Shown here piece after piece: positions 9,580 through 49,295 of a DNA stretch of 64,000 nucleotides. Every line of letters starts with the position of its first letter. Position 1 is the first letter of the stretch. Source of the DNA: Deltaproteobacteria bacterium (GTDB lineage Bacteria; Desulfobacterota; Syntrophia; Syntrophales; Smithellaceae); NCBI GenBank assembly GCA_025361065.1, contig JANYAY010000010.1:12695-76694 (forward strand), written 5' to 3'. Below the pieces are notes generated by a model. The model was not told the DNA's origin. It ran no database searches and saw only the letters and a list, made by a program, of their open reading frames with translations. The position numbers and the translations under genes were made by a program.

Positions 9580-9789
9580 CTATTTTCTTCCTGTTTTACT
9601 ACTGCTATCATCTTCCGGCACCTGACTTTTCTCCTGAGTATGTTGGTCAATATCCTGCCGGTGGACGGCAATATTGCGCGGCGCTTCAACGCCGATCCGA
9701 ATATATTTTCCCTTGCTCTCCAGAATAGTTATTTTAATGTCGTCGCCGATTGTAATCGATTCACCAAACTTCCGTGTCAGGACAAGCAT
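9580..9789 (-). CDS. csrA: Carbon storage regulator CsrA
   Basis: [39 protein letters not shown] is the canonical CsrA core, followed by a C-terminal extension of about 20 aa. Confidence 0.95.
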
Positions 9790-16877: not shown

Positions 16878-16900
16878 CTTTCTGCTCCCGCAATTTTACT

Positions 16901-16961
16901 TAGGAGCCGTTACGAAATAACCTGTTCTTTTTCTCTATTTCGTTACGGATCCTTATGCCGT
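16901..16961 (-). repeat. Intergenic hairpin element, copy A (flgH|flgI spacer)
   Basis: Minus sense reads ACGGCATAAGGATCCGTAACGAAAT-agagaaaaagaacaggtt-ATTTCGTAACGGCTCCTA. It ends 24 nt before the flgI ATG. Confidence 0.8.
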
Positions 16962-17128
16962 CTTGCCACCCTTTAGTGGTGGTTTACTATAATTTAAAAA
17001 TCAGGTTTTTTGGAACAACGGCCAAATCCTGTAGTTAGAAATGCTCCTCTTTAACCCCGCTTTGCGGGATAAGTGCGTTAACGAAATCATTTTCTGCCGG
17101 GAAAAAGCAGAAAATAATTTCTAACTTA

Positions 17129-17830
17129 CTAAAAAGGCCACGCCCAATCCACGACTCTCGTCAACCATCCCGGCCTCATTTTGTCGTTAACGACGCCATC
17201 ACCCGTGTACATTATCCGCGCGTCGGCTATATATTGCGAAGCCACCGTATTGTCACCTGTAATATCATCCGGCCGGACAATTCCGGTGATAATGATGTAC
17301 TGATCTTCGGCATTGACGGTCAGCTGCCTTTTTCCTTCGATCAGCAGATTCCCGTTATCGAAAACCTTTAAAACACGGGCGCTAATGCTTGCTGACAATG
17401 TACTGCTCCGGCTGGTATCGCCCGATCCTTTGAGGGAATTATTGGATGTTCCGCCTAAACCGATTTTTCCTCCCATCGTAGCATTGCTGCCGATAATTGC
17501 ATTCTCAATGCCTAAAAGCGATGTAATAGCAGCTGCCGTGCTGGTATCTTTACTGGTATTTGTTGAAGCTTTGTTTCCGCCCGCTACTGTTTCCGAAACG
17601 ATAATAGTAACAATGTCGTTTGCATAGCGCGCCTTTTTACCGTAGAAAATCAAATTATTGTTGTTTTCACCCGGCCAGATGGAACCTGCGGCCGGCTGCG
17701 GCTTAGCTATCTGGGGAACAACAACCTCGTCCGGCCGGATACTGATTTTTTGTTCCGACGGACAGCCGGCAATTATAAAGGCAAGCAGTATTAAGGCCAA
17801 TCCCGAATAACTTTGTTTTATTTTCAGCAT
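17129..17830 (-). CDS. flgH: L-ring lipoprotein FlgH
   Basis: Lipobox LAFIIAGC, followed by ARYANDIVTIIVSE and RIMYTGDG motifs. Confidence 0.95.
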   Translation of the reverse strand: MLKIKQSYSGLALILLAFIIAGCPSEQKISIRPDEVVVPQIAKPQPAAGSIWPGENNNNLIFYGKKARYANDIVTIIVSETVAGGNKASTNTSKDTSTAAAITSLLGIENAIIGSNATMGGKIGLGGTSNNSLKGSGDTSRSSTLSASISARVLKVFDNGNLLIEGKRQLTVNAEDQYIIITGIVRPDDITGDNTVASQYIADARIMYTGDGVVNDKMRPGWLTRVVDWAWPF

Positions 17831-17845
17831 AAGATTGCTCCATTT

Positions 17846-18583
17846 CTATTTAAAATCGACTCTAACTTTTGATTCTCCGACAACTCGGGCATAAATTAGT
17901 TTATTGGATGTAATATTGCGCACTTTCACAAAAGACCCTTCCGCACCATCTTCTTCCGAAAGACCCATCGTTGTTATATTCATTGCTCCACTTTCCAAAA
18001 CAATCTGCACCATCTTACCTCTTTTAACAGCAGTTACCTCTTTGATCATATTGCGGGATATTTCGGTATTCGGACGAATACTGACTAAGAGCGATTTTCC
18101 CACAACTTCATCCACATTGGAAAGTGAGTTTAAGGGAATTGAACGTAGCCATTTTTTTTGCACAGAAACATCGTTGGCACTGATTATGGAATCTCTACCC
18201 AGATTTTTAATGCTGACAACAAATTCATGGAGGATTTCTATTCTCACGCGAATTGATTCTTCCTTAAACAAAATACCTTTATTATACAATTTTACAACGA
18301 AGTAAGTGTCTCCCAGGTAATTATCATTACCTTTAAGTTCCACCCTCCAGGAAACATTTCCTTTGGGCAGAGCAATTTCGGGGAGATGGGAAAGGATTTC
18401 AAACCGCATCGAGCCCTGGGGCCAGGGCATATTTTTCTCAATATGCAACCCAATTGCTTTATTTATTTTTTCCTGATCTATGACCAGGTTTTCTGCCGCC
18501 ATTAAATTTCTCGCCCCCAGGCAAATGATTATTCCGCATACAATGGAGAGAATTATTAATTTGCCGGTTACTCGCTTTAACAT
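17846..18583 (-). CDS. flgA: P-ring assembly chaperone FlgA
   Basis: Signal peptide, then a C-terminal SAF-like region VKRGKMVQIVLESGAMNITTMGLSEEDGAEGSFVKVRN. Confidence 0.85.
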   Translation of the reverse strand: MLKRVTGKLIILSIVCGIIICLGARNLMAAENLVIDQEKINKAIGLHIEKNMPWPQGSMRFEILSHLPEIALPKGNVSWRVELKGNDNYLGDTYFVVKLYNKGILFKEESIRVRIEILHEFVVSIKNLGRDSIISANDVSVQKKWLRSIPLNSLSNVDEVVGKSLLVSIRPNTEISRNMIKEVTAVKRGKMVQIVLESGAMNITTMGLSEEDGAEGSFVKVRNITSNKLIYARVVGESKVRVDFK

Positions 18584-18586
18584 TTT

Positions 18587-19369
18587 TTACCTCTTGAGGT
18601 TGTTAACAATGGAGAGGAGACTGTCAGCCGTTTGAATGGCCTTGGAATTAATTTCATAGGCCCTTTGGCCGACAATCATGCGGACCATTTCATCGACTAC
18701 ACTTACATTAGACATTTCCAGAAAATGCTGGGATATAGTTCCAATGCCATTTTCTCCCGGATTCCCGACAACCGCATCACCGGACGATTCCGTTTTGTCA
18801 TAAAGGTTTCTACCAATGCTGGTTAATCCCGCCGGATTAATAAATGACGCTAATTGTATACGGCCTGTTCCCAATGATGCTCCGGCATTATCGGCCGCGG
18901 TCCAGGTTCCGCCGGCATCAACTGTAAAGGATACTGTTCCTGTCGGGATGGTAATGCTGGGAGTAAGCTTCAATCCCTCGGAATTGACTAAGGAACCTTC
19001 CTTATTAACTTTAAGGCTGCCGGCCCGGCTGTAAACTGTTGTCCCATTATTATCGAACTGAAAAAAACCATTTTGCTCAATTGCCAGGTCAAATTGATTA
19101 CCGGTTTGCTGATAATCGCCCTGGGTAAATATTTTTTGCGTGGACATCGGTTTTACACCCATGCCTATTTCAATGCCTACCGGTAACTGATTGCCCTGAG
19201 TTGTCTGGGAACCCGATTTCGCTGTAATCTGATACATGAGATCAAGAAAATCGGCCCGTGACTTCTTGAAACCAACTGTATTCACATTAGCCAAATTATT
19301 AGCCACGACATCCTGTTCTAATTGCTGGGCCGCCATACCGGTTGCCGCCGTAAACAAAGCTCTGATCAT
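18587..19369 (-). CDS. flgG: Distal rod protein FlgG
   Basis: MIRALFTAATGMAAQQLEQDVVANNLANVNTVGFKKSR at the N-terminus and QRAYEINSKAIQTADSLL at the C-terminus. Confidence 0.95.
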   Translation of the reverse strand: MIRALFTAATGMAAQQLEQDVVANNLANVNTVGFKKSRADFLDLMYQITAKSGSQTTQGNQLPVGIEIGMGVKPMSTQKIFTQGDYQQTGNQFDLAIEQNGFFQFDNNGTTVYSRAGSLKVNKEGSLVNSEGLKLTPSITIPTGTVSFTVDAGGTWTAADNAGASLGTGRIQLASFINPAGLTSIGRNLYDKTESSGDAVVGNPGENGIGTISQHFLEMSNVSVVDEMVRMIVGQRAYEINSKAIQTADSLLSIVNNLKR

Positions 19370-19381
19370 ATGATCCTCCTT

Positions 19382-20095
19382 TTAAGCCAATCTCCCTATT
19401 TTGCTTATAGAAATCTTATCTAAGTCTGACATGGTTTGAATTATTTTTTGATACGTTTCAAAAGAACGATGTCCATCTATCATCTCCACCATCTCTTTCA
19501 TTGCGTTGACATTGGACATTTCCAGATAACCGCCTGATACTCGATATTGATCATTTTTTTTTAATCCGGCGTTTCCCTCATCAATATACTGCCCTCCGGC
19601 AGTACGAATTAGTTGACCCGGATTGGCAAACGAAACTACTTTTAATTTTCCTGCCAAATTTCCGTCGACCCGAATAGTACCATCGGCGTCAATATTTATC
19701 TGTGTACCGTTAATAGTTATCGGCCCCGATTCCCCCAGCACTTTTGCTCCGCTCTTTGTTACTAATTCTTTATCTTTATTCAGGACAAAGCCGCCGTTAC
19801 GCGTATAGGTAGTGCCGTCTTTTTGATCAATGGTAAAAAAACCTTCGCCTTCAATGGCCACATCCAGTGGATTGCCGGTATGTTGTAAGGTGCCCTGAGC
19901 AAAATCCATGACTATGGATGTTGGTCCCAAACCAGAGGGGGATGTTTCTTGCGCCTGCTTTTCCTTCATTGCGTAATACAGATGTTCTGATTTAAATCCG
20001 GTTGTGGAAGCGTTGGCGAGATTATTGGAAAGAAAATCCAATTGAGTAAGCTTTCTTGATCCGGCAATAGCAATATCACTTATATCGTAGCCCAT
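19382..20095 (-). CDS. flgF: Proximal rod protein FlgF
   Basis: LSNNLANASTTGFKSE at the N-terminus and YLEMSNVNAMKEMVEMIDGHRSFETYQKIIQT at the C-terminus. It lies upstream of flgG. Confidence 0.85.
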   Translation of the reverse strand: MGYDISDIAIAGSRKLTQLDFLSNNLANASTTGFKSEHLYYAMKEKQAQETSPSGLGPTSIVMDFAQGTLQHTGNPLDVAIEGEGFFTIDQKDGTTYTRNGGFVLNKDKELVTKSGAKVLGESGPITINGTQINIDADGTIRVDGNLAGKLKVVSFANPGQLIRTAGGQYIDEGNAGLKKNDQYRVSGGYLEMSNVNAMKEMVEMIDGHRSFETYQKIIQTMSDLDKISISKIGRLA

Positions 20096-20125
20096 TTTTC
20101 CTCCCCCTATTTTGCATTACAACAT

Positions 20126-20141
20126 TGCAAGCGATATGCCA
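20126..20141 (-). promoter_or_regulatory. sigma54 promoter upstream of flgF
   Basis: Minus sense reads TGGCAT-atcgc-TTGCA, 30 nt before the ATG and followed by GGGGGAGG. Confidence 0.8.
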
Positions 20142-20352
20142 TAAGATTTCACCGATACTCAGTTATCGAAATAGTTAGAGGGAATGACCTTGGCCGCTGA
20201 GTTTTCAGTGACAATTAACAATACTTATCAAGTATTTACACGATAGCTTTAATTAAATTGAAAAATTGTCATTAATGGTAATTTAAATAAATACAATTTT
20301 TCTGCAACACTGGCCGGGAGGAAATAATGTGCCGGGAGGAAATTTTTTCCTT

Positions 20353-20412
20353 GAGGAACCGTTACGAAATTATCTGTTCTTTTTTCTATTGCGTTACGGC
20401 TCCTTATGCCGG
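20353..20412 (-). repeat. Intergenic hairpin element, copy B
   Basis: Minus sense reads CCGGCATAAGGAGCCGTAACGCAAT-agaaaaaagaacagata-ATTTCGTAACGGTTCCTC. Confidence 0.8.
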
Positions 20413-20460
20413 TTAAGAGATTAGAATATTACAGTCGTGCCATAACCTGATAACCTCAAG

Positions 20461-20490
20461 GTCACAAGAGGTCACGCGAAGTCACAAGAG
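20461..20490. repeat. Three tandem 10-mers
   Basis: GTCACAAGAG GTCACGCGAA GTCACAAGAG, preceded by ATAACCTG ATAACCTC (20443-20458). Confidence 0.8.
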
Positions 20491-20544
20491 CAGTATGGGT
20501 GGTTATTGTTGATGAACGGCTTGGCGGCAAAAAGAGGTTAATTT

Positions 20545-20850
20545 TTATGATCGGGAAATATTTTGCGATCTCTGATTTTCATTGAGTGAATAAACAAAGG
20601 CCAGGATTTCTGCGACGGCCCGGTACAATTCCACCGGAATTTCGGCACCGACTTTCAATTTACTTAATACCTGAACCAAATCAGGATCATTCTTGATCGG
20701 TATGCCGTTTTCTTCAGCAATTGTGATTATTTTTTCAGCAATTATGCCACGTCCGCTTACCGTCACTTTCGGCGCGCCATCCCCTGCGTTATCGTATTTT
20801 ATAGCAGCAGCCAGGACGTGTTCCGGTTCTTTTTCTTTTTTCTCGATCAT
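20545..20850 (-). CDS. Free-standing FlhB C-terminal-domain homolog (YlqH/FlhX-like)
   Basis: 101 aa. HVLAAAIKYD..APKVTVSGRGIIAEKIITIAEENGIPIKNDPDLVQVL..IPVELYRAVAEILAFVY aligns with FlhB in this window starting just after its NPTH (compare HLAVAIQYD..APKVVAKGANLIAAKIKEIAQENDIPIVEDKPLAQVLY..IPEDLYRAVAEVLAFVY). Confidence 0.85.
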   Translation of the reverse strand: MIEKKEKEPEHVLAAAIKYDNAGDGAPKVTVSGRGIIAEKIITIAEENGIPIKNDPDLVQVLSKLKVGAEIPVELYRAVAEILAFVYSLNENQRSQNISRS

Positions 20851-20859
20851 TATTGCCCT

Positions 20860-22017
20860 CTAGGCAAAAAAATTAACCAATTCCGCAGCTGCGAATGATT
20901 GCCCTGCTATAAATTCTTCCCGCTCATCCATCAATCCATCTTCTTGCAAACAATCGATATAGCCAAGCCGATAGCCGGTTCCCGCAAGTGAACGCTTCAG
21001 TTCATCAAGATTATCGTTGACCAGATCCCTGACATCCATTCTTTCGCATTTGATTATGCAGTTGAAGCCACCTTCACGTACACCGGCCTTGACCGAGATT
21101 TTTCCCAGAATATCTAAATCTAAAAAAATTGTAACACAACATGATGAAAACTTTGTTTTGCCCAGCCCATTATTTCCTTCCGGGGTAATAAATATATCGG
21201 CTAAACGAAAGCCGTCAGCCAGAGCCACCGGAACCTGCAACACCAGTCCGTTGTCGCTGTCCTGAAAAACTGAATTCAGGACCTGCTTCACTTCAATCGT
21301 CTTTAATGCTTCATCGGTAAACGCTAATATATTTGCCAGTTTTGCCGTAATTTCCATATCAAGTTTTGAGTTTTCCCGGAGAGCATCGCCTGCTGCAGAT
21401 GATAATTTTAACAGTAATGCTTTTAAATTGTCTTCCAGAGGCTTTTCCATTCTTCCCTTGGCGGGATCGCTGACAAGTTGTCTCAATGAATTCTCCAGCA
21501 TGAGGCCCATCTTGGAAACAAACTCTTTCAAAAACAATGGATTATTCCCGGTACGCGACGAAAACGTTATATTATCAAACAGTTTTATCAATTTCTCCAC
21601 ATCGCTTTTAGAAAAAGCCGGCGGCAGATAATCGGTTTGCAGAAGCTTCGCCAATCCGGCAACTTTATCGATTACCTGCAACAAAGATTCGGGATTTGCC
21701 CGCCATTGCCGCAATTTTTCATTAATTTGGGCATCGCCATTTTGATTTTTGTTACCGACGATATTTAAGATAATTTGCGGCTGTAAACTATCAACTCTAA
21801 CTACAAGTTTTTCGCCCACATTTAAAGGTATGTTACTTGTTGCCGGAATCTGCAAGTTTTTCAATGCCATCATATATTTATTGCCGGCTAACTTCTCCAC
21901 AACTATTGTCTGCAGAGTTTCTCCCAGGACAACTCCTTTGAGAGACACATTAGAGTGGGATATTTCTATGTTGTTAGCTGGAATATTGTTAGCCGGAGAT
22001 ATTGGTGCGGGAGACAT
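20860..22017 (-). CDS. Second FliK-like protein with a C-terminal Flg_hook-type domain
   Basis: The C-terminus IFLDLDILGKISVKAGVREGGFNCIIKCERMDVRDLVNDNLDELKRSLAGTGYRLGYIDC follows the FliK C-terminal pattern. Compare LNPPSLGKVEMDVIVRNGKVEVVLVADNKDVQQTLNTHIDKLKGSLQSQGLTIERCDV in FliK at 37791-39479. Confidence 0.6.
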   Translation of the reverse strand: MSPAPISPANNIPANNIEISHSNVSLKGVVLGETLQTIVVEKLAGNKYMMALKNLQIPATSNIPLNVGEKLVVRVDSLQPQIILNIVGNKNQNGDAQINEKLRQWRANPESLLQVIDKVAGLAKLLQTDYLPPAFSKSDVEKLIKLFDNITFSSRTGNNPLFLKEFVSKMGLMLENSLRQLVSDPAKGRMEKPLEDNLKALLLKLSSAAGDALRENSKLDMEITAKLANILAFTDEALKTIEVKQVLNSVFQDSDNGLVLQVPVALADGFRLADIFITPEGNNGLGKTKFSSCCVTIFLDLDILGKISVKAGVREGGFNCIIKCERMDVRDLVNDNLDELKRSLAGTGYRLGYIDCLQEDGLMDEREEFIAGQSFAAAELVNFFA

Positions 22018-22033
22018 CAGGTATTCTCAGTTT

Positions 22034-22098
22034 TAGGAGCCGTTATGAAATTAACCATTATATATTTCTAACCATTTCGTTACGGCTCCTTATGCCGT
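22034..22098 (-). repeat. Intergenic hairpin element, copy C
   Basis: Minus sense reads ACGGCATAAGGAGCCGTAACGAAAT-ggttagaaatatataatggtta-ATTTCATAACGGCTCCTA. It ends 17 nt before the ATG at 22017. Confidence 0.8.
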
Positions 22099-22131
22099 TT
22101 TCAGCATTTATTTGATCAAGTTAATTTTGCT

Positions 22132-22596
22132 CTACGGCTTAATACGGGAAAGATCAATAATTAATCCAATTTCAGCTTGGGTAAAGCCGGTAGTGCGAGC
22201 TGTTTCCTCTTCTCCATATCCCTTATTGATCATGTTTATTACTTCAGAATATTTACTTCGTGAAAAAGCGGAATCATTATTTGCGGCTTTTACATCTATG
22301 ATTTTCACTTCCTGCTGCGATTTTTCTAAAATCATTTTTACCCTTTTTTCTTTCAGTTCCAGTTCCAGGGCAATTTCTTTCAGGGCCAGCCTGCTTTGTT
22401 CCATAGCTTGCAGAAATTTATCGGCATTGGTCTGTGATTCGATAATTAAAGATTTTAATTCGGCTGTCATTTTTCGATGAGAATCAAGGGGAGGATTTTT
22501 AATGTTGGCATTTACCCGCCAAAGCAAAATTATTATAGCTGCAAATAAGACAAAATCGAGGCTAATTTGTAAAAATATCGGATTTTGCAAGTCCAT
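22132..22596 (-). CDS. DUF2802-like membrane-anchored protein with a C-terminal HTH-like segment
   Basis: One TM segment (ISLDFVLFAAIIILLW), a coiled coil, and a C-terminus YSEVINMINKGYGEEETARTTGFTQAEIGLIIDL. The ATG at 22596 lies 1 nt after the upstream stop. The ORF-track start at 22659 overlaps the upstream gene. Confidence 0.55.
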   Translation of the reverse strand: MDLQNPIFLQISLDFVLFAAIIILLWRVNANIKNPPLDSHRKMTAELKSLIIESQTNADKFLQAMEQSRLALKEIALELELKEKRVKMILEKSQQEVKIIDVKAANNDSAFSRSKYSEVINMINKGYGEEETARTTGFTQAEIGLIIDLSRIKP

Positions 22597-22597
22597 T

Positions 22598-22912
22598 TTA
22601 AACCTTGATGTTGATGTGTCCGCCTTCGTCCTCGGATTCGCCGTCTTCACCGGCAGCAAGGTGTTCGGGATTTCCTTCCGGGTGCTGCTCTTTGCTTTTC
22701 CTGCCGCTCTGACGTTCTTCTTTTTCTTTTATTACAGCCTTCTCCGATTCTTCCGCTGATTTTACCTTTTCTTTTAAAACACGATCCTGTTCCGATAAGT
22801 GCAAGGCAAAATACCGCTGTTGCATATCCGGATTTTGCTGCTGGATTTGCTGAACTTTTTCCGCCATGCTCGATTGCAGAATTACTTGTTGTGCATCTAT
22901 TGCCCTGACCAT
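22598..22912 (-). CDS. Hypothetical small Q-, K- and E-rich protein
   Basis: 104 aa with GGAGG 8 nt before the ATG, translationally coupled to the next gene. I recognise no family. Confidence 0.55.
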   Translation of the reverse strand: MVRAIDAQQVILQSSMAEKVQQIQQQNPDMQQRYFALHLSEQDRVLKEKVKSAEESEKAVIKEKEERQSGRKSKEQHPEGNPEHLAAGEDGESEDEGGHINIKV

Positions 22913-22998
22913 GAATTATTACCTCCTGTCTATTATTTTTCTGAAACAGGACGTTTCCACTAAACAGATCGTCAAAACAACAGAATTTCTTAAATTTC

Positions 22999-23787
22999 CT
23001 ATCTTTTAATTCTTTCACTACGATAAGGAAAGCCAATGGAAATAGTGCTAAAGTTTTCCTCACTGAAAAAATTAATTCTTGCCTGATATTTATCAAAAAG
23101 AAGTAAAGACATTAAAACTCCCCGATCAACAGCGGCAGGCATATTCAAGGAATCAGAGTTTAAATTTTCCATTAATGTTTCCAGATCAGCAGCAGGCATA
23201 GCCTCACCGGAGCTTTTGATAAACACACTTACATACTTATTATCATGATCCGTTTTAATATGAAATTCCTTTAACGGGCTCGCTAAAGCCCGAGTCATTG
23301 CAAAACGGATAATTCTCCAGAAGGCCAGCGATAAATCCGCCGTATTGCCCTTAAAATCGGGGATGTCTTTATCCCATTGAATATCTTTCTTTATCTCATG
23401 TTTAAAATCCAAATAAAAATTGAAAAAGCGCATCTCTGCCGCGAGCAATTGAGAAAGATTTATTCCATCTTCATTTTTCGCGGCTAATGCATAAAACTTA
23501 CCGGCAACATCTTTGAACATATCGAAGAAATATTCCGATTCCTGATTAACAGAGTTAATATCCGTCTTGATCCGCTTTAGTTCATCCATCATTCCCGCCG
23601 CGGCATCCGGATACTTTTCTTCCATCTTTCTTACGCTTTCCTCAATACGCCGCTGCAGCAGTTTTGATCTTCCCATGATACCGTTTAGAGGATTGGCAAA
23701 ATTATGAAGAATACCAGGAATTAGTTCTTCAATAAAAGTTGCTGTAAAATCTTTTTCCAATGCCCGGTAGATTTCGCCTTTATCCAT
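22999..23787 (-). CDS. Histidine-kinase-like protein with an intact H-box and a degenerate ATP-binding domain
   Basis: HNFANPLNGIMGRSKLL is a HisKA H-box. At the expected N, G1 and G2 positions the sequence reads FWRIIRFAMTRAL, IKSSGEAMP and VDRGVLMSL. There is no sensor or TM region. Confidence 0.6.
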   Translation of the reverse strand: MDKGEIYRALEKDFTATFIEELIPGILHNFANPLNGIMGRSKLLQRRIEESVRKMEEKYPDAAAGMMDELKRIKTDINSVNQESEYFFDMFKDVAGKFYALAAKNEDGINLSQLLAAEMRFFNFYLDFKHEIKKDIQWDKDIPDFKGNTADLSLAFWRIIRFAMTRALASPLKEFHIKTDHDNKYVSVFIKSSGEAMPAADLETLMENLNSDSLNMPAAVDRGVLMSLLLFDKYQARINFFSEENFSTISIGFPYRSERIKR

Positions 23788-23869
23788 TTACGACATCTCC
23801 TTTGTATATAAATCGCTTTCCCGTCCTGCAATGTCCATTATAGAATACCTTTTCCCGGAAAGGAAAGAT

Positions 23870-24487
23870 TTACATTATTACGTAGTTGGTAAAATATACA
23901 TTTTTAACAATGCCATCACCCAGCATTTTGTTCAATTCCTGCACTAATTCCTTTTTCAATCGCTTGCGCTCTTCAATTGATTTTAAAACTACGGCATTTC
24001 TTCCCGTTGCAGTTTGATAAATCAGGTTCCTGATATCATTCCTGTTTTCCAACTCTGCAATTATCCCCGCCTCACTTACATCAAAAACAACATCGCACAG
24101 CAGAATTTTGCTTTTGCCCGCTTTATCTTTCAGGTCAATAATAAAATCTTTAAAATATGCATTATTCATTTTTACCGGTTCGACTGCAACCGGTGCGCTG
24201 ATTCTTTCATCGTTTGCCGGTTTTTTCTCGATTACCACTGCCGGAGGGACTGATTTAAGTTTGGTCACGGTAGTATCTGTTCGTGAAAGATAAAACCACA
24301 ATAATCCGGTAATTACAAGGACAACGATTATAGCCGGCATACCAATCAAAAGAATTTTATTGAAAGCCCATTTTTCCTGCGCAACAGGAAGCGACGACTC
24401 CTCCTGCTCCATCATCGGGCTGTTTAAATCCGTCAGTTCTATGTCCGGCAGATTTTCCAGAACATCTAATTTTGCTTTTTCTACCAT
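23870..24487 (-). CDS. FliL-family protein, second copy
   Basis: One TM segment, then a C-terminus FIIDLKD..ILLCDVVFDV...RKRLKKELVQELNKMLGDGIVKNVYFTNYVIM with the FliL pattern. Confidence 0.7.
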   Translation of the reverse strand: MVEKAKLDVLENLPDIELTDLNSPMMEQEESSLPVAQEKWAFNKILLIGMPAIIVVLVITGLLWFYLSRTDTTVTKLKSVPPAVVIEKKPANDERISAPVAVEPVKMNNAYFKDFIIDLKDKAGKSKILLCDVVFDVSEAGIIAELENRNDIRNLIYQTATGRNAVVLKSIEERKRLKKELVQELNKMLGDGIVKNVYFTNYVIM

Positions 24488-24543
24488 AATTCACCAACAA
24501 ATCGTTAGGGGCCGTTACAATATTGTAGTTATTGCTGAACGGC

Positions 24544-25266
24544 TTAACGGGAAAAATTGACCATGCTTTTTAATCTTAAAACCGCTTGCGCGTGAAGTTG
24601 ACAAACTCGTGATTCCGTTAAATCCATCACCCGGCCGGTTTCCTTCATGGTCAATTCCTCATAATAATAAAGAGAAAGAACAAGTCTTTCTTTTTCCGGC
24701 AACTGGTCGATGGCGTTCTTGAGATTATTCTTTATCTCCATATTCACGAGTAAGTTAAGCGGGCTTCCGGCGCTGATCTCTTCCATAATATCTTCGCGGC
24801 TGTAGCGTTCCAGATAATCAGGCGGCAAGTCTTCAGTGGATATCAGAGGAATGCACCTGGCATCATCGAGTAATTTAAAATACTCTTCCAGAGAAATATC
24901 CAGCTCACGGGCAATTTCTTCCTCACTCGGCGCTCTGCCTAATTCTTTATGCAACGCTCCCATTGCATTTTCCAGTTTGCTGTCTTTGCTTCTGGTCGCC
25001 CGGGGAACCCAATCTTTTGCCCGTAATTCATCAAGAACAGCTCCCCTAATCCGAAAACTGGCATATGTTTCGAATTGGACATTTCTGTTTTTGTCAAATT
25101 TTTCTAAAGCGGACATTAAACCCATAATGCCGACATTGATTAAATCTTCTTTATCCGCCAAATCAATAGGCAATTTAGCAGCCAGCCGCCCGACAATATT
25201 TTTTACGAGCGGCGCATATCTCATTATCAGTTCTTCGCGCTTTTTTTTATCCACAATTTCGATCAA
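24544..25266 (-). CDS. fliA: Flagellar sigma factor FliA (sigma28)
   Basis: Regions 2 to 4 are recognisable (DLINVGIMGLMSALEKFD, YASFRIRGAVLDELR, VLSLYYYEELTMKETGRVMDLTESRVCQLH). It lies downstream of flhF-flhG. Confidence 0.95.
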   Translation of the reverse strand: MIEIVDKKKREELIMRYAPLVKNIVGRLAAKLPIDLADKEDLINVGIMGLMSALEKFDKNRNVQFETYASFRIRGAVLDELRAKDWVPRATRSKDSKLENAMGALHKELGRAPSEEEIARELDISLEEYFKLLDDARCIPLISTEDLPPDYLERYSREDIMEEISAGSPLNLLVNMEIKNNLKNAIDQLPEKERLVLSLYYYEELTMKETGRVMDLTESRVCQLHAQAVLRLKSMVNFSR

Positions 25267-26161
25267 CGATATTTTCCCAGAATAATTTTACGCTGCCGTC
25301 TTCATCATCCCGTACATTCTCGCTGCAAATAGTTTCGGCAATTTTAGCCAGACATCTGGTAGCAGGAGAATTTGGATAAATTTCGGCCACAGCTCTTTGC
25401 TGCAAAACAGCCTGTTTAACTTTTTCATCTAACAACACATAGCCCAAATACTCAATAGTTAAATTTAAAAATTGATCGGTGGCATGACTTAACCTGTCAT
25501 AAACCTCTTTAGCCTCAGAAGGCCTGCGAACCATATTGACAATTAAACGAAAACGTCTTTTAGCGTGACGTTGATAAAGCACTTTAATTAATGCATAAGC
25601 GTCCGTTAAAGCAGTCGGTTCAGGAGTTGTAACTACAATTATCTCTTTCGCCGCCATGTTGAAGTACATGACATTGGAGGAAATGCCGGCACCAGTGTCT
25701 ATTAATATAAAATCGAGAGAATCATTGAGGGAATTTAATTCATCAATCAGGGTCAGTTTCTGGCCTCGGGAAAGATCGGTCATTTCGGGTATTCCCGACG
25801 CTGAAGGCAGAATCTTAATGCCGCCGGGTCCTTCTACCAGTGTTTCCGCGAGAAGCCTCTCGCCATTTAATACATGGAACAGATTATAGGGGGAATTAAT
25901 GCCGAGAATAACGTCAATATTAGCTAAACCGGCATCAGCATCCAGTATCATCGTCTTTTGATTCTTCCGGGAAAGAAGATAAGCCAGATTAGCGGCAATA
26001 TTGGTTTTGCCCACACCACCTTTTCCACTGGTAACGGATATCATCCGTACCCCATTGCGGGAGGGATAACCTCTTTGTACACCCGGATTAACTGTCGGGG
26101 TAATTGAACTTTTATCCTGATTTCTTAATGTTCTCAGAGCCTCTGCCTGATCCGTTCTCAT
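25247..26161 (-). CDS. flhG: MinD/ParA-type ATPase FlhG (FleN/YlxH)
   Basis: Deviant Walker A SGKGGVGKT, located between flhF and fliA. Confidence 0.9.
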   Translation of the reverse strand: MRTDQAEALRTLRNQDKSSITPTVNPGVQRGYPSRNGVRMISVTSGKGGVGKTNIAANLAYLLSRKNQKTMILDADAGLANIDVILGINSPYNLFHVLNGERLLAETLVEGPGGIKILPSASGIPEMTDLSRGQKLTLIDELNSLNDSLDFILIDTGAGISSNVMYFNMAAKEIIVVTTPEPTALTDAYALIKVLYQRHAKRRFRLIVNMVRRPSEAKEVYDRLSHATDQFLNLTIEYLGYVLLDEKVKQAVLQQRAVAEIYPNSPATRCLAKIAETICSENVRDDEDGSVKLFWENIVDRNCG

Positions 26162-26206
26162 ATAACTCCTTAAGTAATTACATTTTATAGCTTTGTCTTT
26201 TTGCCT

Positions 26207-27367
26207 TTAATGAATAACTCCGCTCATAATTAAACTTGCCATTTTTTGTGGTGTAACTTCTTCTATATCATGGGGAACATTTTGCCCGCAGGTTAAAAAG
26301 CTTACCGGTTTCCGGGCTTTATTAATTACATCATAGAGAATGCCGAAACGCCTGGATTCATCGATCTTGGTTATGATCAAATTATCATAATTAAAAGGAG
26401 AATACTTCGTAACTATATCCAGCAAATTATCTTCACTGGCTGTAGTACTAACCAGCAGATTGGTTTCGATATTCTTATTATGCAGCATGGTATCCATAAT
26501 ACCCAAATAACCATCATCGACACAGCTCCGGCCCGGGGTATCTATCAAAACGATATCCTTATCGGATAATAAATGCAGTGATTTTTGAAAGGACTCTTTT
26601 GTCGAAGCCACTTCCATCCTGATCCCCATAATCTTGGCATAGGTTCTCAATTGTTCTATGGCGGCAATGCGAAAGGTATCAATTGTAATTAAACCCACAC
26701 TCTTTTTTCCCATTAATGAATAACGGGCAGCAAGTTTTGCCAGGGTGGTTGTCTTACCAACGCCAGTAGCACCGACATAAGCTTTAATTCGTTTTTCTTC
26801 TTTTGATTTATTCATCACCGGCAGTGATTTAATAACAAATTTCTCGACAATCTGCAGTGCAATTTCTTCCGTTAATTGATCCCGGGAGGATATTTGGGAC
26901 CCGATTTCTTCCATTATCCTGCAAGCGCTGGCGCGGGTAAACCCGCATGCAAGCATTTGATAATAAACTTTAGAATTTATATCCGGATTTGATTTCCTTT
27001 TTCGTGCTCCCAGAATATCAAAGAATTTATCCATTGTTTCTTTTAACTCTTCGAGCTCTGCGCCAAGCGACTTCTCCTTCTGTCCTGAACGGATGATTTC
27101 TTTGAGTTCACTTATCTCTCCACTTATGAATTTATAAATATCCTGCTGATTTTCCGTTGGGCGTCTGCTTTCCGGCGGCAATGAATTGACAAACCCTTTT
27201 CCCTGTATCGGCGCATTTTCATCGCGCGCCGCCATTACTTCTATCGCCGAGTCGCTCGTATTATTTATTTTCTTTGCCGAAAGAATAATTGCATCAGACC
27301 CCATATCTTCTTTAATTTTAGTTAGAGCCTCACTGATACTGGATACTTCATAGCGTTTAACTTGCAT
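26207..27367 (-). CDS. flhF: SRP-type GTPase FlhF
   Basis: GATGVGKTTTLAKLAA, DTPGR and TKIDE motifs. Confidence 0.93.
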   Translation of the reverse strand: MQVKRYEVSSISEALTKIKEDMGSDAIILSAKKINNTSDSAIEVMAARDENAPIQGKGFVNSLPPESRRPTENQQDIYKFISGEISELKEIIRSGQKEKSLGAELEELKETMDKFFDILGARKRKSNPDINSKVYYQMLACGFTRASACRIMEEIGSQISSRDQLTEEIALQIVEKFVIKSLPVMNKSKEEKRIKAYVGATGVGKTTTLAKLAARYSLMGKKSVGLITIDTFRIAAIEQLRTYAKIMGIRMEVASTKESFQKSLHLLSDKDIVLIDTPGRSCVDDGYLGIMDTMLHNKNIETNLLVSTTASEDNLLDIVTKYSPFNYDNLIITKIDESRRFGILYDVINKARKPVSFLTCGQNVPHDIEEVTPQKMASLIMSGVIH

Positions 27368-27368
27368 T

Positions 27369-29450
27369 TTATAATTCTACCATTCCTAAAGATTTTACAT
27401 TAGCTTCCCGTGAAATTTCGTTGTGTGACAAAATTACGATGCTGGGATAAAATTTTTCCAATATCTTGCGAAAATGAATTCTCGTATTCGGCGAACAGAG
27501 AATTATCGGCTGTAAACCGCTGGTCGTAAACGCGTTTACCAGCCGCTGTAAACTGGTGACCAGTTTTTTCACAATATTAGGATCGGGCATTACAAACGAT
27601 TCATAATCCGTATGCGAGATGGAATGACTAATCTTATCTTCAACATCCGGCGACATGAGCATTACCGTGATATTTCCATCTTTATCCTGATACTGCTTTG
27701 TTATGGAACGTCCCAGATTCTGCCGTACATATCCGGTAAGAATATCGGCATTTTTTGTAACCGACGCATATTCTCCGATTGTTTCCACAATTGTCATTAA
27801 ATCACGGATGGAAATGCGTTCGCGCAGCAACCGCTGGAGAACTCTATGTACTACTGTTACCGGAACAATTTTCGGGATAATTTCTTTTACCATCTTGGGG
27901 TACTGTTCCTCCAGGTTATCCAAAAGTGCCTGTACTTCATTTCGCCCCAAAATCTCGTCGGCATAAGATTTAATCAACTCTGTAAGATGTGTCGTCATCA
28001 CCGTAGCCGGATCGACCACAACATAGCCCTTTGATTGAGCAGAATCCTTATCCCTTTCAGCTATCCACATTGCCGGAAGCCCGAAAGCAGGTTCTTTAGC
28101 ATGAATACCTTTAATCTTCATATCCTTCTCATCGGCCGAAATAACCAGATGGTGGCCCATCATTATGTTGCCTCGCGCTATTTCCGTACCTTTGAGCAAG
28201 ACATTGTATTCATCAGGTTTGAGTTTTAAATTATCCCGAATGTGAATTGCCGGAATAATAAAGCCCATTTCTGCTGCCAGTTGACGGCGCAGAGCTTTGA
28301 TACGATGCAGCAATTCACCACCCTGAGCAGAATCAACCAAAGGAATCAAACCATAGCCCACTTCCAGCCCTAGGGCATCAAGTGGTGCGATAGTATCTAC
28401 TGCTTCCACGGCCGCAGGTTGGGCTTCCTGTTCATTTTTCTCCTGTTCTTTGGCCTTATTAATGGTGTTGACGATACGGAAAGCTAAAAAAGCAACAATT
28501 GCCGCTACAATAAAGAAAGACGCTTTGGGCATTCCCGGAATCATTGCAAAAATGAAAATCATTATCGATGCTGTAGCGATTACGCGCGGTTGCATAAATA
28601 ATTGTTGTTTTACTTCTTCACCCAAGTCCGCCGACGCCGCACTCCTTGTCACTAATATACCTGCCGCAGTGGAAACAATTAAAGCCGGCACTTGCGTCAC
28701 TAAACCGTCACCAACGGTTAAAAGAGTATAATTTCTTGCCGCATCGGCAACTGCCATTCCTTTTTGGAGTACGCCAATAATCAATCCACCGATGATATTA
28801 ACAAAAACAATAATGATGCCGGCAACCGCATCACCCCTGACAAATTTACTGGCACCGTCCATGGATCCGTAAAAATTAGCTTCCTGCTCAATTTCCGAGC
28901 GGCGACGCCGTGCCTCATTATCAGTGATCAAACCGGCATTCAAATCAGCATCAATGCTCATTTGCTTTCCCGGCATAGCATCCAGGGTAAATCGCGCCGC
29001 CACTTCAGCAACACGTGTAGCACCCTTGGTAATAACGACAAAATTGATCAAAACCAAAACCATAAAAACAATTAATCCGACAACATAATTGCCACCCACA
29101 ACAAATGTGCCAAACGATTTAATAACCTGTCCGGCAGCCGCAGTCCCTTCATTGCCATGCAACAAAATCAATCTGGTGGAAGCCACATTCAGTGATAATC
29201 GCAAGAGAGTAACCATTAACAAAACAGAGGGGAATACTGAAAACTGCAATGGTTTTAGCACATACATCGACATCAGCAGAATAATGATCGAAAAAGTAAT
29301 ACTGAAAGAAAGAAAAATATCCAATAAAAAAGTCGGGATGGGAATGATCATGACCATCAGAATAGCAATAACGGCCATGGCCATCATGGCTGAGCTTGAT
29401 TTCACTGCGTCTAAAAAAGCGCCCCTGTTAACTGTTTCCGAAGTAGCCAT
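27369..29450 (-). CDS. flhA: Export gate protein FlhA
   Basis: 693 aa. FPSVLLMVTLLRLSLNVASTRLIL and VGDGLVTQVPALIVSTAAGI, plus a cytoplasmic domain. Confidence 0.98.
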   Translation of the reverse strand: MATSETVNRGAFLDAVKSSSAMMAMAVIAILMVMIIPIPTFLLDIFLSFSITFSIIILLMSMYVLKPLQFSVFPSVLLMVTLLRLSLNVASTRLILLHGNEGTAAAGQVIKSFGTFVVGGNYVVGLIVFMVLVLINFVVITKGATRVAEVAARFTLDAMPGKQMSIDADLNAGLITDNEARRRRSEIEQEANFYGSMDGASKFVRGDAVAGIIIVFVNIIGGLIIGVLQKGMAVADAARNYTLLTVGDGLVTQVPALIVSTAAGILVTRSAASADLGEEVKQQLFMQPRVIATASIMIFIFAMIPGMPKASFFIVAAIVAFLAFRIVNTINKAKEQEKNEQEAQPAAVEAVDTIAPLDALGLEVGYGLIPLVDSAQGGELLHRIKALRRQLAAEMGFIIPAIHIRDNLKLKPDEYNVLLKGTEIARGNIMMGHHLVISADEKDMKIKGIHAKEPAFGLPAMWIAERDKDSAQSKGYVVVDPATVMTTHLTELIKSYADEILGRNEVQALLDNLEEQYPKMVKEIIPKIVPVTVVHRVLQRLLRERISIRDLMTIVETIGEYASVTKNADILTGYVRQNLGRSITKQYQDKDGNITVMLMSPDVEDKISHSISHTDYESFVMPDPNIVKKLVTSLQRLVNAFTTSGLQPIILCSPNTRIHFRKILEKFYPSIVILSHNEISREANVKSLGMVEL

Positions 29451-29455
29451 ATTTT

Positions 29456-30532
29456 TTATCCAAATATCTTAATTTTCTTCTGCTCGTAAACAAATGCCAG
29501 TACTTCCGCAACGGCCCGGTAAAGATCTTCCGGTATCAAATGATCTATATCAACCGTCTTATACAATACCTGTGCCAGAGGTTTATCTTCGACGATCGGA
29601 ATATCATTTTCCTGGGCAATCTCTTTAATTTTTGCAGCAATTAAGTTTGCCCCTTTAGCCACTACTTTGGGTGCCATCATATTTTCGTGATCGTATTGGA
29701 TCGCGACTGCCAAATGGGTCGGATTGGTAATAATGACGTCTGCCTTCGGCACCTGAGACATCATCCGCTTTTGGGCCATTTCCCGCTGTAAGCGGCGGAT
29801 TCGGGCTTTAATCAGGGGATCACCTTCAGTATTCTTGTATTCATCTTTAATTTCCTGTTTGGTCATCCGCAGGCTTTTTTCGTATTCCCAGCGTTGATAT
29901 ATGTAATCAAGGATAGCCAGAATAACGAGTACTATCGTGGTGGCCAGAATAATTTTGAAGCAGATACGGCCAAAATACATCATCATTCCCCAAACACTTT
30001 GATCCATCAGAGGAATCATATCAGCCAATTCACTTTTAACAACAAAATATACCACCATGCTGATAACGCAAATTTTGAAGATACTTTTGATCAGTTCCAC
30101 AATCGACCGCATGGAAAATAGCCTTTGAAAACCTTTAAGGGGATCAATCTTGGATAATTTTGGGGTTACTGATTCCGACGAAAACATGACACCGATTTGC
30201 AGGATATTTCCCAGAATAGCCGCAACGAGAACTGTCAGCATGATCGGAAAAAGGATAATAAAACCTTTAAAAATGTAATCACTAAATAAATAAGTCAGGC
30301 TTTCTTGCGTGAGGTTAAACTGACCTGCACCGCGGAATCCGGAAGTCATTAATTCCATGATGTTCTTGAGCAATCCGGAAGCGCCAAAATAAAAATAAAT
30401 CAGGCAGGCCACCAGAATTCCCACGGACACAATTTCCGTAGAACGCGCAACCTGACCTTTTTCGCGTGCTTCATCACGGCGTCGCGATGTCGCTTCTTCA
30501 GTTCGTTCCTGATCCTGATCGTTTTCCGCCAT
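29456..30532 (-). CDS. flhB: Export switch protein FlhB
   Basis: 358 aa with the NPTH autocleavage motif (ADVIITNPTHLAVAI). Confidence 0.97.
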   Translation of the reverse strand: MAENDQDQERTEEATSRRRDEAREKGQVARSTEIVSVGILVACLIYFYFGASGLLKNIMELMTSGFRGAGQFNLTQESLTYLFSDYIFKGFIILFPIMLTVLVAAILGNILQIGVMFSSESVTPKLSKIDPLKGFQRLFSMRSIVELIKSIFKICVISMVVYFVVKSELADMIPLMDQSVWGMMMYFGRICFKIILATTIVLVILAILDYIYQRWEYEKSLRMTKQEIKDEYKNTEGDPLIKARIRRLQREMAQKRMMSQVPKADVIITNPTHLAVAIQYDHENMMAPKVVAKGANLIAAKIKEIAQENDIPIVEDKPLAQVLYKTVDIDHLIPEDLYRAVAEVLAFVYEQKKIKIFG

Positions 30533-30625
30533 ACATTACCTATCGCATTGTGACCTTCAGATTATGGACAGACAAAGTTATTTTGCCCGACGGCTTAATG
30601 ACGTGAGCGTCAATTTTCCGCTGCT

Positions 30626-31405
30626 TCACATTAAACGCAAAAGCATTACGATTTTAGCCTCATAATTAATGAAAAAACCTGACGTCAATTTGACAAACAT
30701 CGGCGCAGTTAAACCCAGAAAAATAAGTCCGATTGCTATTTGCAGAGGCATGCCGACGATAAAGATATTGATCTGCGGCACTGTACGGGCAACGATTCCC
30801 AGACCAACATTGGTAAAGAGCATTACTGCCATAAGAGGAGCCGCCAGTTTAACTGCAATAACAAACATTTCTTTCGAATAACTGAAAATAGCCTGTATTA
30901 GTGGACCCGAAAAATGAAAGGCCAGGGGATTTAAAATAGAATAACTTTGAATAATTGCTGAAAAGAAAATGTGATGAGCATTAACTGCCAGGAACACGAG
31001 CAAGGCAATCAGATATTGCAGCTCAGTAATGATGGATACCTGCTCACTGGTCATGGGATCGATAATATTGGCAATGGATAATCCCATTTGAAAACCAACC
31101 ATATCACCGGCCATCTGAATACCTGCCAGGAGCAGTCTGGCAACATAACCGATAATCAGGCCGATTATAACTTCACCAGCCATCCGGTACATTAAAATCA
31201 GCACATGATAATTTGCTGTTTGCGGAATTTTCGGCAGGACAACGGGGAATATGATTAAAGTTATCAGGACGGATAAAGCGGCTTTAAATCGCGCCGGAAC
31301 AGCTGTATCACTGATTACCGGAATGGTAACGACAATGGCACTTACTCTTAATAAGACTAGAATGAAAGCTTCTAAGTGTTCGGCGGATAAGAAAGGCAAG
31401 CTCAT
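30626..31405 (-). CDS. fliR: Export apparatus protein FliR
   Basis: 259-aa polytopic protein between fliQ and flhB. Confidence 0.93.
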   Translation of the reverse strand: MSLPFLSAEHLEAFILVLLRVSAIVVTIPVISDTAVPARFKAALSVLITLIIFPVVLPKIPQTANYHVLILMYRMAGEVIIGLIIGYVARLLLAGIQMAGDMVGFQMGLSIANIIDPMTSEQVSIITELQYLIALLVFLAVNAHHIFFSAIIQSYSILNPLAFHFSGPLIQAIFSYSKEMFVIAVKLAAPLMAVMLFTNVGLGIVARTVPQINIFIVGMPLQIAIGLIFLGLTAPMFVKLTSGFFINYEAKIVMLLRLM

Positions 31406-31460
31406 ATTTCGTTACTCTCTTTTCCTTTCTTTCCATGTGATTTATTTCCACCGGATATTT

Positions 31461-31730
31461 TCACTTGATATATGCCGGTATATTGGCGAATATATTTTGC
31501 GTAAAGGTTATCATTAAACTCATCATCCAGGGGAGCGCTGCCACCAAGGCAACCATAACCGCCACAATCTTCGGTACAAACACCAGTGTCATTTCCTGAA
31601 TTTGCGTAACAGCCTGAAACAAGCTGATCAAAACACCTACAACCAAACCCACTATCAGCATCGGGGCAGATACTAAAAGTGTTATCTTGATAGTTTCCGC
31701 CATTAATCCCACAACCATATCTGTAGTCAT
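31461..31730 (-). CDS. fliQ: Export apparatus protein FliQ
   Basis: MTTDMVVGLMAETIKITLLVSAPML..FQAVTQIQEMTLVFVPKI, 89 aa from the ATG at 31730. The ORF-track start at 31760 runs into repeat copy D. Confidence 0.93.
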   Translation of the reverse strand: MTTDMVVGLMAETIKITLLVSAPMLIVGLVVGVLISLFQAVTQIQEMTLVFVPKIVAVMVALVAALPWMMSLMITFTQNIFANIPAYIK

Positions 31731-31750
31731 TTTGTTATCTTCTTTCAGTT

Positions 31751-31807
31751 TAGGAACCACTACGAAATAATCTGTTTTTTCTATTTCGCTGCGGCACCTT
31801 ACGCCGT
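31751..31807 (-). repeat. Intergenic hairpin element, copy D (fliP|fliQ spacer)
   Basis: Minus sense reads ACGGCGTAAGGTGCCGCAGCGAAAT-agaaaaaacagatt-ATTTCGTAGTGGTTCCTA. It is the most divergent copy but keeps the stem through a C:G swap and G.U pairs. Confidence 0.75.
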
Positions 31808-31832
31808 TGGCTATATTTTTTTGACCAACGGC

Positions 31833-32606
31833 CTAATGGAAACTTTGGACTAATGAACCGACGATTAAATACCAGCCGTCAACAAGCACAAATAACAGCA
31901 ATTTAAAGGGTAAACTGACCATAATTGGCGGGAGCATCATCATACCCATGGACAACAAAACAGATGCCACGACCATATCCAAAACCAGAAAAGGCAGATA
32001 AATCATAAAGCCGATTTGAAAGGCAGTCTTCAATTCGCTAATCGCAAAAGCCGGAATTAACGTTGTTAAAGAAATATCTTCCGGTTTTGCGGGTCTCTTC
32101 TCGTTCGCTATTTTAACAAAAAGAGCCAGGTCTTTCTCTCTTACCTGTTTGAGCATAAAGGCTTTTACCGGAGCTGCGGCTTTTGCAAAAGCCTGTTCAC
32201 CGGAAATCTGTTCTTCATAATAAGGTTTTAGAGCTTCATCGTTCACCCGGTTAAAAACCGGCGCCATAATGAAAAAAGTCAGGAATAAAGACAATCCGAT
32301 GATGACTTGATTGGGAGGCATTGTTTGCGTTCCCAAAGCATGCCGCAGCAGGGATAAAACGATTACAATCCTGGTAAAAGAAGTGACCATCAAAAGAATG
32401 GCCGGAGCCAAAGAAAGAATAGTCAATAATATTACCAGCTGAATGAGCGAGGAGACTTTTTCCGGTTCGGTTGTTCCACCGGACATACTCAAACTGATAT
32501 TGGGTAAAGAAAGGGACTGGGCAGCGTAGACATAAGGGGAAGTTATTATCGCTACAACTATAAAGAGCAATGAAAATAAAATTATCAGCACTTTCTCTCT
32601 TTTCAT
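31833..32606 (-). CDS. fliP: Export apparatus protein FliP
   Basis: LLTILSLAPAILLMVTSFTRIVIVLSLLRHALG and GFMIYLPFLVLDMVVASVLLSMGMMMLPP. Confidence 0.97.
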   Translation of the reverse strand: MKREKVLIILFSLLFIVVAIITSPYVYAAQSLSLPNISLSMSGGTTEPEKVSSLIQLVILLTILSLAPAILLMVTSFTRIVIVLSLLRHALGTQTMPPNQVIIGLSLFLTFFIMAPVFNRVNDEALKPYYEEQISGEQAFAKAAAPVKAFMLKQVREKDLALFVKIANEKRPAKPEDISLTTLIPAFAISELKTAFQIGFMIYLPFLVLDMVVASVLLSMGMMMLPPIMVSLPFKLLLFVLVDGWYLIVGSLVQSFH

Positions 32607-49250: not shown

Positions 49251-49295
49251 CGTTGTTCTTTAACCTTTAGGACCACGTTATTGTTGCAATACGGC

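Follow-up and report, generated by a model that had tools for sequence, protein, structure and literature searches.

A repeated hairpin unit between flagellar genes

We analyzed a stretch of 64,000 nt from a Deltaproteobacteria bacterium of the Smithellaceae (GCA_025361065.1, contig JANYAY010000010.1, positions 12,695–76,694, forward strand; hereafter, the window), in which flagellar genes are separated at several junctions by copies of a hairpin-forming repeat that is very probably a mobile element. The flanking genes confirmed by Pfam encode FlgI, FlgH, FlgA, FlgG, FlgF, an FlhB C-terminal-domain protein (FlhB-CTD), and FliK, and further confirmations were obtained for the DUF2802-like protein, FliL, FliA, FlhG, FlhF, FlhA, FlhB, FliR, FliQ, FliP, and FliO. 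The original prediction, made from the letters of the window, had named flgH, flgI, FlhB-CTD, flgF, DUF2802, fliK, fliP, fliQ, and fliA as the neighbors of a conserved ~60-nt hairpin, and Pfam agrees with each of these names. Its observation is confirmed by our analysis, and its interpretation, which ranged from RNA punctuation and CsrA binding to a domesticated MITE (a transposable element of the miniature inverted-repeat type) or repetitive extragenic palindrome (REP), is partly supported.

Using an nhmmer profile of the element family on the window and the loci, we recovered four full copies in the window at the predicted positions, all of them in the sense of the flagellar genes, i.e., on the minus strand. 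The 19-nt left-arm pattern has three matches with at most three mismatches against 0.01 expected by chance, and the 18-nt right-arm pattern has eight against 0.03; a chance origin of the copies is therefore excluded. The copy between the DUF2802-like gene and fliK (22033–22141, minus strand) is full at 109 nt (E-value 4e-21). The flgH/flgI copy (16900–17025, minus; E-value 3e-17) has a CCACC..GGTGG hairpin repeat (16962–16992) nested in its 5' domain, and its terminal TAA lies 22 nt upstream of the flgI ATG. In the FlhB-CTD-like/flgF copy (approximately 20352–20522, minus), the 5' domain is split by a nested insertion of ~60 nt (20438–20500) from a different repeat family. The fliP/fliQ copy (31750–31835, minus; E-value 4.6e-10) measures 86 nt, its 5' domain being shortened; the TAG with which it opens (31835–31833) is the stop codon of fliP, and its terminal TAA is 19 nt upstream of the fliQ ATG (31730). 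Window copies end 15–22 nt ahead of the next start codon.

The related short hairpins that had been noted next to the stop codons of fliP and fliA turn out to be parts of the same element. The one at fliP is the 5' domain of the fliP/fliQ copy, while the one at fliA is an internally deleted copy of 42 nt (24505–24546, minus; weak nhmmer E-value 0.68) that retains both ends, reads TAA GCCGTTCAGCAATAAC..ATTGTAACGGCCCC TAA, and supplies the fliA stop codon with its 5' TAA.

Anatomy of the full element

To define the family, one genome per GTDB species was scanned with the exact 23-mer GGCRTAAGGNGCCGYARCGMAAT. Some 45 assemblies contribute to the matches listed, which comprise at least 118 loci with at least 127 copies of known orientation. 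As they cover exact 23-mers among the matches listed, the counts of the element are lower bounds, and all family-wide copy counts refer to the copies within these matches. The strand of each copy was assigned by strand-specific arm criteria, with only unambiguous copies kept; the consensus and the structural alignment were made from 91 distinct full-length copies, and the counts of boundaries, lengths, and stop codons from 111 copies with both ends.

The full unit is ~105 nt and reads TAA-GCCGTTG..AATAAC..(variable hairpin)..AACGGCATAAGGAGCCGTAACGAAAT..loop..GTTATTTCGTAACGGCTCC-TAA, the consensus of the 91 copies being TAA GCCGTTGTCAAAGAATAAC TTGACCGGAGAAATTCCGGAA AC GGCATAAGGAGCCGTAACGAAAT (loop of ~16 nt) GTTATTTCGTAACGGCTCC TAA. 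A 5' domain of ~42 nt, (TAA)GCCGTTG..AATAAC..hairpin..AAC, precedes the predicted left arm, so that the ~60-nt unit first described was the 3' two-thirds only. Three arms can be recognized, namely forward GCCGTTGTCAAAGAATAAC at the 5' end, forward GGAGCCGTAACGAAAT in the middle, and reverse GTTATTTCGTAACGGCTCC, the last being complementary to both of the others. The unit begins with TAA-GCCGTTG on the left and finishes with CGTAACGGCTCC-TAA on the right, and its length is 105–106 nt in 84 of 111 copies. Position-by-position composition shows conservation from the T of the 5' TAA to the last A of the 3' TAA, beyond which the flanks are random; of the two TAA, that at the 5' end is the less conserved (T97/A90/A99, against T111/A107/A109 at the 3' end; n = 111). 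If indels are allowed, GCCGTTGTCAAAGAATAAC at the 5' end can be matched to the reverse complement of the 3' end, GCCGTTACGAAATAAC. The A-rich loop, which had been noted as conserved in three of the four window copies, is specific to a subfamily and not shared family-wide.

Searching Rfam 15, we found no match of the window at the gathering threshold, and an E-value threshold gave only noise of at most 20 bits. A description of the element sequence was not found in the literature searched, where literal strings, run against 8 million papers, gave one irrelevant fungal match and keywords only the general MITE/REP literature. The element is apparently an undescribed family of a known kind.

Filled and empty sites

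We then compared the window with 80 flagellar loci (926 kb) obtained from a metagenome scan with FlgG, at FlgG identities of 42–89%. The longer of these loci (first 35 listed) share the gene order of the window, flhF-flhG-fliA-fliL ... DUF2802-fliK-flhBc-flgF-G-A-H-I, where flhBc is the FlhB-CTD gene. Neither nhmmer nor regular expressions found the element in any of the 80 syntenic loci, and the junctions of the relatives can therefore be read as empty sites.

The DUF2802/fliK junction was compared with the empty sites of six relatives (L120–L125), in which the TGA of the DUF2802-like open reading frame (ORF) overlaps the fliK ATG as TGATG. The empty site of L122 reads CCCGTATTAAAAACGAGAACACCTGATG (core CCCGTATTAAAAACGAG), while the filled site of the window reads CCCGTATTAA, element, TAAAACTGAGAATACCTGATG (core right flank TAAAACTGAG). 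The target was a +1-frame TAA that lay six codons ahead of the ancestral stop, and the last five codons of the DUF2802-like ORF were replaced by the insertion; a TAG within the element (22134–22132) is the present stop of the ORF. The ancestral overlap with fliK was split by 105 nt, and the two genes are now 114 nt apart (22132–22141 and 22017–22033 compared). At fliA/fliL, where 15–19 nt follow the stop in relatives, the window reads TAA, a 38-nt remnant including TAA, and CGATTTG..., with a right flank that matches L122. The flgH/flgI spacer is 251 nt in the window against ~50 nt in relatives, in agreement with the predicted inflation of this junction; its right flank corresponds to the empty site of L122, and the sequence after the terminal TAA of the element matches the Shine-Dalgarno (SD) region of the relatives. 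The flhBc/flgF spacer is already ~290–320 nt in relatives without the element (L120–L122) and 449 nt in the window (20096–20544), of which ~170 nt is element, and this spacer may be an operon boundary or hold a promoter unrelated to the repeat.

Filled sites carry TAA on both sides, while the empty sites of L120–L125 carry a single TAA or stop codon. The element is thus inserted at TAA trinucleotides, which are then found on both sides, and its arrival in the flagellar cluster of this lineage postdates the divergence from relatives with 85–89% FlgG identity. A 4-bp YTAR target, as in IS5, was also considered and rejected, as only 42% of copies have a C directly ahead of TAA.

Distribution across genomes

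Among the matches listed, many are from Desulfobulbaceae, Desulfocapsaceae, or metagenome-assembled genomes labelled 'delta proteobacterium', others are from Syntrophaceae or Smithella, and four are NC10/Methylomirabilota genomes with 16, 11, 9, and 6 loci, 16 being the highest number for any genome. The NC10 genome with 16 loci (assembly CAWJSJ01) has a largest contig of 2.7 Mb. The element is present in at least Desulfobacterota and Methylomirabilota, and its arms are identical or near-identical between the Desulfobacterota and NC10. The variable parts are often identical within a genome, e.g., in two identical 106-nt copies of L010 and in one NC10 subfamily found in eight loci, which is indicative of recent amplification. 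In two pairs of genomes at species level, apparently orthologous sites are occupied (L022 1849–1954 and L027 ~2085–2190; L059 5794–5898 and L071 1759–1863), and the downstream flanks match in both pairs. Some insertions would thus be older than the separation of the species, and others are recent. When the window was compared by BLAST with the loci of the scan (at least 118), no genome in common was found, and no match to the element was found in IMG/VR viral contigs or, by blastn, in PLSDB plasmids.

Clustering of all ORFs in the loci revealed no recurrent neighboring gene family beyond common housekeeping types, and the element is hence not tied to any gene function. One possibility is that the hairpin is a cis-regulatory RNA of flagellar operons, in which the long stem and a competing ACGGC-AUAAGGA-GCCGU hairpin would control the mRNA by processing, stability, translational coupling, or CsrA binding through a looped GGA. 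We consider such a selected function very unlikely. It would agree with the window itself, where all copies are sense and end 15–22 nt before the next start codon and where csrA is encoded (9580–9789, minus strand), as the original prediction had noted. However, many copies lie beside unrelated genes in several phyla, NC10 among them, so the element is not a flagellum-specific regulator, and it is absent from the same junctions in the 80 syntenic relatives.

Orientation and stop codons

Tabulation of orientation and flanking genes, as the original prediction had proposed, gave 34 same-sense and 20 antisense copies between co-directional ORFs, with unrelated neighbors, the ORFs being called by a heuristic of our own (length and a codon-position filter) and not by a gene finder; several of the antisense copies sit between ORFs of 500–1000 aa. 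The 20 antisense copies speak against a cis-regulatory role, and the five sense copies out of five in the window are not significant when ~60% of all copies are sense. A plain selfish repeat was to be expected, by the original prediction, to be spread in both orientations without regard to operon, and we found the element in many genomes and phyla, in both orientations and beside unrelated genes. Of its 'domesticated MITE/REP', the MITE/REP part is supported by distribution, orientation, and empty sites, while nothing shows domestication.

The ends of the element are closely associated with stop codons. In 38 of 111 copies, the 5' trinucleotide is itself the stop of an upstream same-strand ORF of at least 120 codons, this trinucleotide being TAA in 71, TGA in 13, and TAG in 6 of the 111; in 14 copies, the 3' CTAA supplies TAG, in reverse complement, as the stop of a convergent ORF. 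Tandem copies sharing one TAA occur in L085 (three in a row, 1111–1418), L020, and L053, and the triplet of L085 points to successive insertions, each made at the terminal TAA of a copy already in place.

Stems, covariation, and RNA function

The long stem, B:B', is 98% paired over the 91 sequences, with two invariant A.A mismatches where one had been predicted, and shows compensatory changes from GGAGCC/GGCTCC to GGGGCC/GGCCCC in 10 sequences. A further helix, A:A', forms between the 5' domain and the right arm on its 'loop' side; 10 of its 11 pairs vary in both partners, and its covariation score is 0.208, compared with 0.095 for shuffled and at most 0.057 for slid alignments. Since A:A' and B:B' cross, a two-domain fold and a terminal-stem fold are both possible, and single sequences fold both ways, with z-scores of −3.2 to −6.9 against shuffles (the fliP/fliQ copy at −34.7 kcal/mol, z −6.9). 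The arms covary. The mini-hairpin ACGGC-AUAAGGA-GCCGU is invariant across the family, and for this reason it gives no covariation evidence.

The stability of these folds relative to shuffles and the invariance of the AAGGA-presenting mini-hairpin are the features that a regulatory RNA would share. Nevertheless, a hairpin that never varies offers no covariation in favor of such a role, and the pairing does not mark one strand. In the fliP/fliQ copy, we found the one U:A to C:G double change and the three G.U pairs from which a minus-sense RNA had been argued, but these are specific to this copy. Across the family, cells with G.U and with A-C number 8 and 15 in helix P1, 14 and 12 in B:B', and 76 and 53 in A:A' (98 versus 80 in total). 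As G.U is not in excess of A-C, the sense RNA is not marked as the selected strand, and the strand-specific argument does not generalize.

Likeness to a CsrA-binding hairpin lies in the mini-hairpin (ACGGCAUAAGGAGCCGU, predicted), which would show GGA in a 7-nt loop; it differs from a CsrA site in that it does not overlap the real downstream SD, competes with two stronger helices, and occurs in either orientation and in unrelated operons. An SD role for the internal AAGGAG was rejected, the nearest ATG within the element being more than 20 nt away and the downstream genes having their own SD after the element. That the element serves between genes as a reused hairpin for termination or attenuation of transcription is extremely improbable. 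Its stem is strong, GC-containing, and 16–19 bp long, as a terminator would have; however, no T-run follows it in either orientation, the composition of the 3' flank is flat with T depleted at +1, and copies lie within operons in which assembly depends on the genes further downstream. Without T enrichment in the 3' flank and without a U-tract, it is not an intrinsic terminator.

A cis-regulatory role as the selected function is largely refuted already. As far as the sequences allow us to judge, RNA punctuation, translational control, and CsrA binding find no support in distribution, orientation, or conservation, while incidental effects on mRNA stability, processing, or coupling are possible.

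A probable MITE-like mobile element

Taken with the empty sites and the distribution, these results lead us to read the hairpins, with a probability of about 0.85, as copies of a ~105-nt non-autonomous, non-coding, MITE-like mobile repeat that targets TAA. The element is small and non-coding (mostly 105–106 nt) and multi-copy (at least 127 copies), and the comparison of filled and empty sites shows a duplicated target, with the caveat of which party owns the TAA. A trans-acting transposase would recognize the invariant GCCGT-containing arms and move the element, the favored enzyme being one of the DDE type that would cut- or copy-and-paste with a 3-bp TAA duplication. The ends would recreate stops on either strand, by the top-strand TAA at the 5' end and the bottom-strand TAG from CTAA at the 3' end; insertions in or beside the stops of tight operons would be tolerated on this account, and such tolerance would explain why copies accumulate at ORF–ORF junctions 15–25 nt before start codons. 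Effects on flagellar expression, e.g., the lost DUF2802–fliK overlap, a long hairpin in the mRNA, or the SD-like AAGGAG buried in the stem, would be by-products and not a selected function.

Several observations weigh against this reading. The apparent TAA duplication looks the same as the outcome for an element that has a TAA of its own at the right end and inserts 3' of a resident TAA. Nor are the termini clean inverted repeats, three extra bases (GGA/TCC) being present on the right relative to the left, and the variable helix A:A' covaries, which implies that pairing within the molecule is selected, or has a mechanism behind it, over and above plain binding sites for a transposase. The orientation and stop-codon counts depend on heuristic ORF calls, and single contigs labelled Holophagaceae, Nitrospirota, and Chromatiaceae may reflect binning errors. 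Moreover, no autonomous partner or transposase was found in the ~0.9 Mb of loci examined, where searches for 5' ends without the middle arm, for recurrent ORF families, and for interrupted copies were all negative, and where inverted end pairs 0.6–3.5 kb apart proved to be only neighboring copies flanking ordinary genes.

The main rival, which we regard as unlikely, is a REP- or REPIN-like (REP doublet) or IS200/IS605-type element (palindrome-associated transposable element, PATE) moved as single-stranded DNA by an HUH tyrosine transposase (a REP-associated tyrosine transposase, RAYT, or TnpA-Y1). The hairpins would then be recognition structures, a TAA target would lie 5' of the insertion point, and the right end would be cleaved at a TAA that belongs to the element. 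The weaker conservation of the 5' TAA fits a flanking target next to an element-owned end, and stems kept by compensatory change with two invariant A.A mismatches are as would be expected for structure-recognized hairpins. The asymmetric ends, the specific short sequence 5' of the insertion point, and the hairpin ends recall IS200/IS605 PATEs, from which the element differs in that its hairpins abut the very termini rather than being subterminal, and its arms behave like inverted repeats. No replication-strand bias was seen with GC skew, taken over each 8-kb locus in the orientation of the element (positive for 70 and negative for 57, p = 0.29), although this is a proxy only.

With REPIN–RAYT systems, which are known as vertically inherited and lineage-specific, the element shares dispersed extragenic palindromes, a doublet-hairpin architecture, compensatory stems, enrichment at the 3' ends of genes, and the absence of an adjacent transposase in the loci, as REPs are served by a single-copy RAYT (no genome-wide search for RAYT or TnpA was made). 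In contrast, it is longer, fixed at ~105 nt, and common to several phyla with identical arms. REPs are palindromes of 20–40 nt in which one end has a conserved tag, GTAG or CGTC (PMC3733652). The consensus of the element has neither tag, CGTC appearing only in the minor variant GCCGTCGTC.

The closest systems to a MITE-like element are the bacterial MITEs, e.g., Correia/NEMIS (Neisseria) and Chunjie (Geobacter uraniireducens). Like the element, these are non-coding, ~100–150 nt, present in many copies with a long hairpin and a short T/A-rich target on both sides, often located in operons near start codons and co-transcribed, and variable in presence between relatives. The element differs in its target (TAA and not TA), in its three arms (two forward, one reverse), in its imperfect terminal repeats, and in arms that are identical across phyla, the named MITE families having not been compared by sequence. 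IS5-superfamily and PIF-Harbinger elements and the Tourist-like MITEs make 3-bp TNA/TAA duplications, to which the TAA target and apparent 3-bp duplication of the element correspond. A looser likeness to IS5, with its GAG/GGC-type ends, is the right terminus read inward as GGAGCC; the left terminus differs in having no GGA, and the likeness is one at the DNA level, no transposase having been found. General reviews of bacterial MITEs are available (PMC3184786, PMC2229807).

Two further readings are, even jointly, quite unlikely. Conceivably, an uncharacterized enzyme would read the three-arm, pseudoknot-capable DNA structure and prefer TAA or stop codons, which would explain the fixed 105-nt length, the identical arms across phyla, and the covarying A:A' helix. 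Alternatively, sense copies could have been co-opted, with the invariant ACGGC-AUAAGGA-GCCGU hairpin serving as a portable CsrA or ribosome decoy site, and each insertion would then put the downstream cistron (flgI, fliK, fliQ) under post-transcriptional control.

Reading the hairpins as a MITE-like repeat removes a false lead, as the element is not a flagellar regulatory RNA, and covariance models built from it would flag hundreds of selfish repeats. For annotation, the boundaries of the family, its TAA target, and its stop-compatible ends are now defined. Insertions of the family lengthen operon junctions, give genes new 3' ends, and break stop/start overlaps. With its near-identical arms in Desulfobacterota and NC10, the family may serve to mark horizontal exchange among lineages of anaerobic sediments, and the arms offer a handle for tracing its transposase.

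Minor copies, nested repeats, and neighboring features

Three weaker features were found in the window. A fragment in the fliR/flhB spacer, TAAGCCGTCGGGCAAAATAAC (30577–30597, minus; weak, nhmmer E-value 3.1, model positions 1–32), is a probable solo 5' end. A probable, heavily deleted remnant of 32 nt (49267–49298, minus; weak, E-value 4.7) reads TGA GCCGTATTGCAACAATAAC GTGGTC CTAA and abuts the TGA stop of a 901-aa ORF. A possible degenerate copy on the plus strand (17065–17132) adjoins the TAG stop of flgH without a gap, as a weak local alignment to the reverse-complemented consensus (score 32, without statistics), and could possibly explain the remaining extra length of the flgH/flgI spacer.

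The CCACC..GGTGG hairpin nested in the flgH/flgI copy belongs to a second palindromic repeat, GTCTTGCCACCCTTTAGTGGTGGTT, which is found at 16962–16992 in the window, at 4541–4563 in L001, and at 2435–2457 in L112, and which also occupies the loops of element copies in other genomes; it looks like another dispersed mini-repeat inserting into the main element. A third repeat family (..CTCTTGTGACCTTGAGGTTATCAGGTTATGG..) occurs at 20438–20500 in the window, 7174–7208 in L058, 2390–2414 in L112, and 18812–18846 in L122, the last being a relative without the main element. In L110 (minus, ~3547–3750 in reverse-complement coordinates), the loop of the copy holds a 125-nt insertion with the inverted ends GAGAGGCTCTTGCAAAATG...CATTTTGCAAGAGCCTC, which is apparently yet another MITE.

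Two Logan contigs, L199 (SRR23617163) and L200 (SRR23617164), carry an identical flgI, and both stop ~220 nt upstream of it; ends inside the repeat-laden flgH/flgI spacer fit assembly breaks at repeats. Adjoining csrA, an ORF of 917 aa (9811–12564) contains four tandem repeats of ~300 nt each at 11030–12075, with 61–85% identity, and is a repeated-domain protein.

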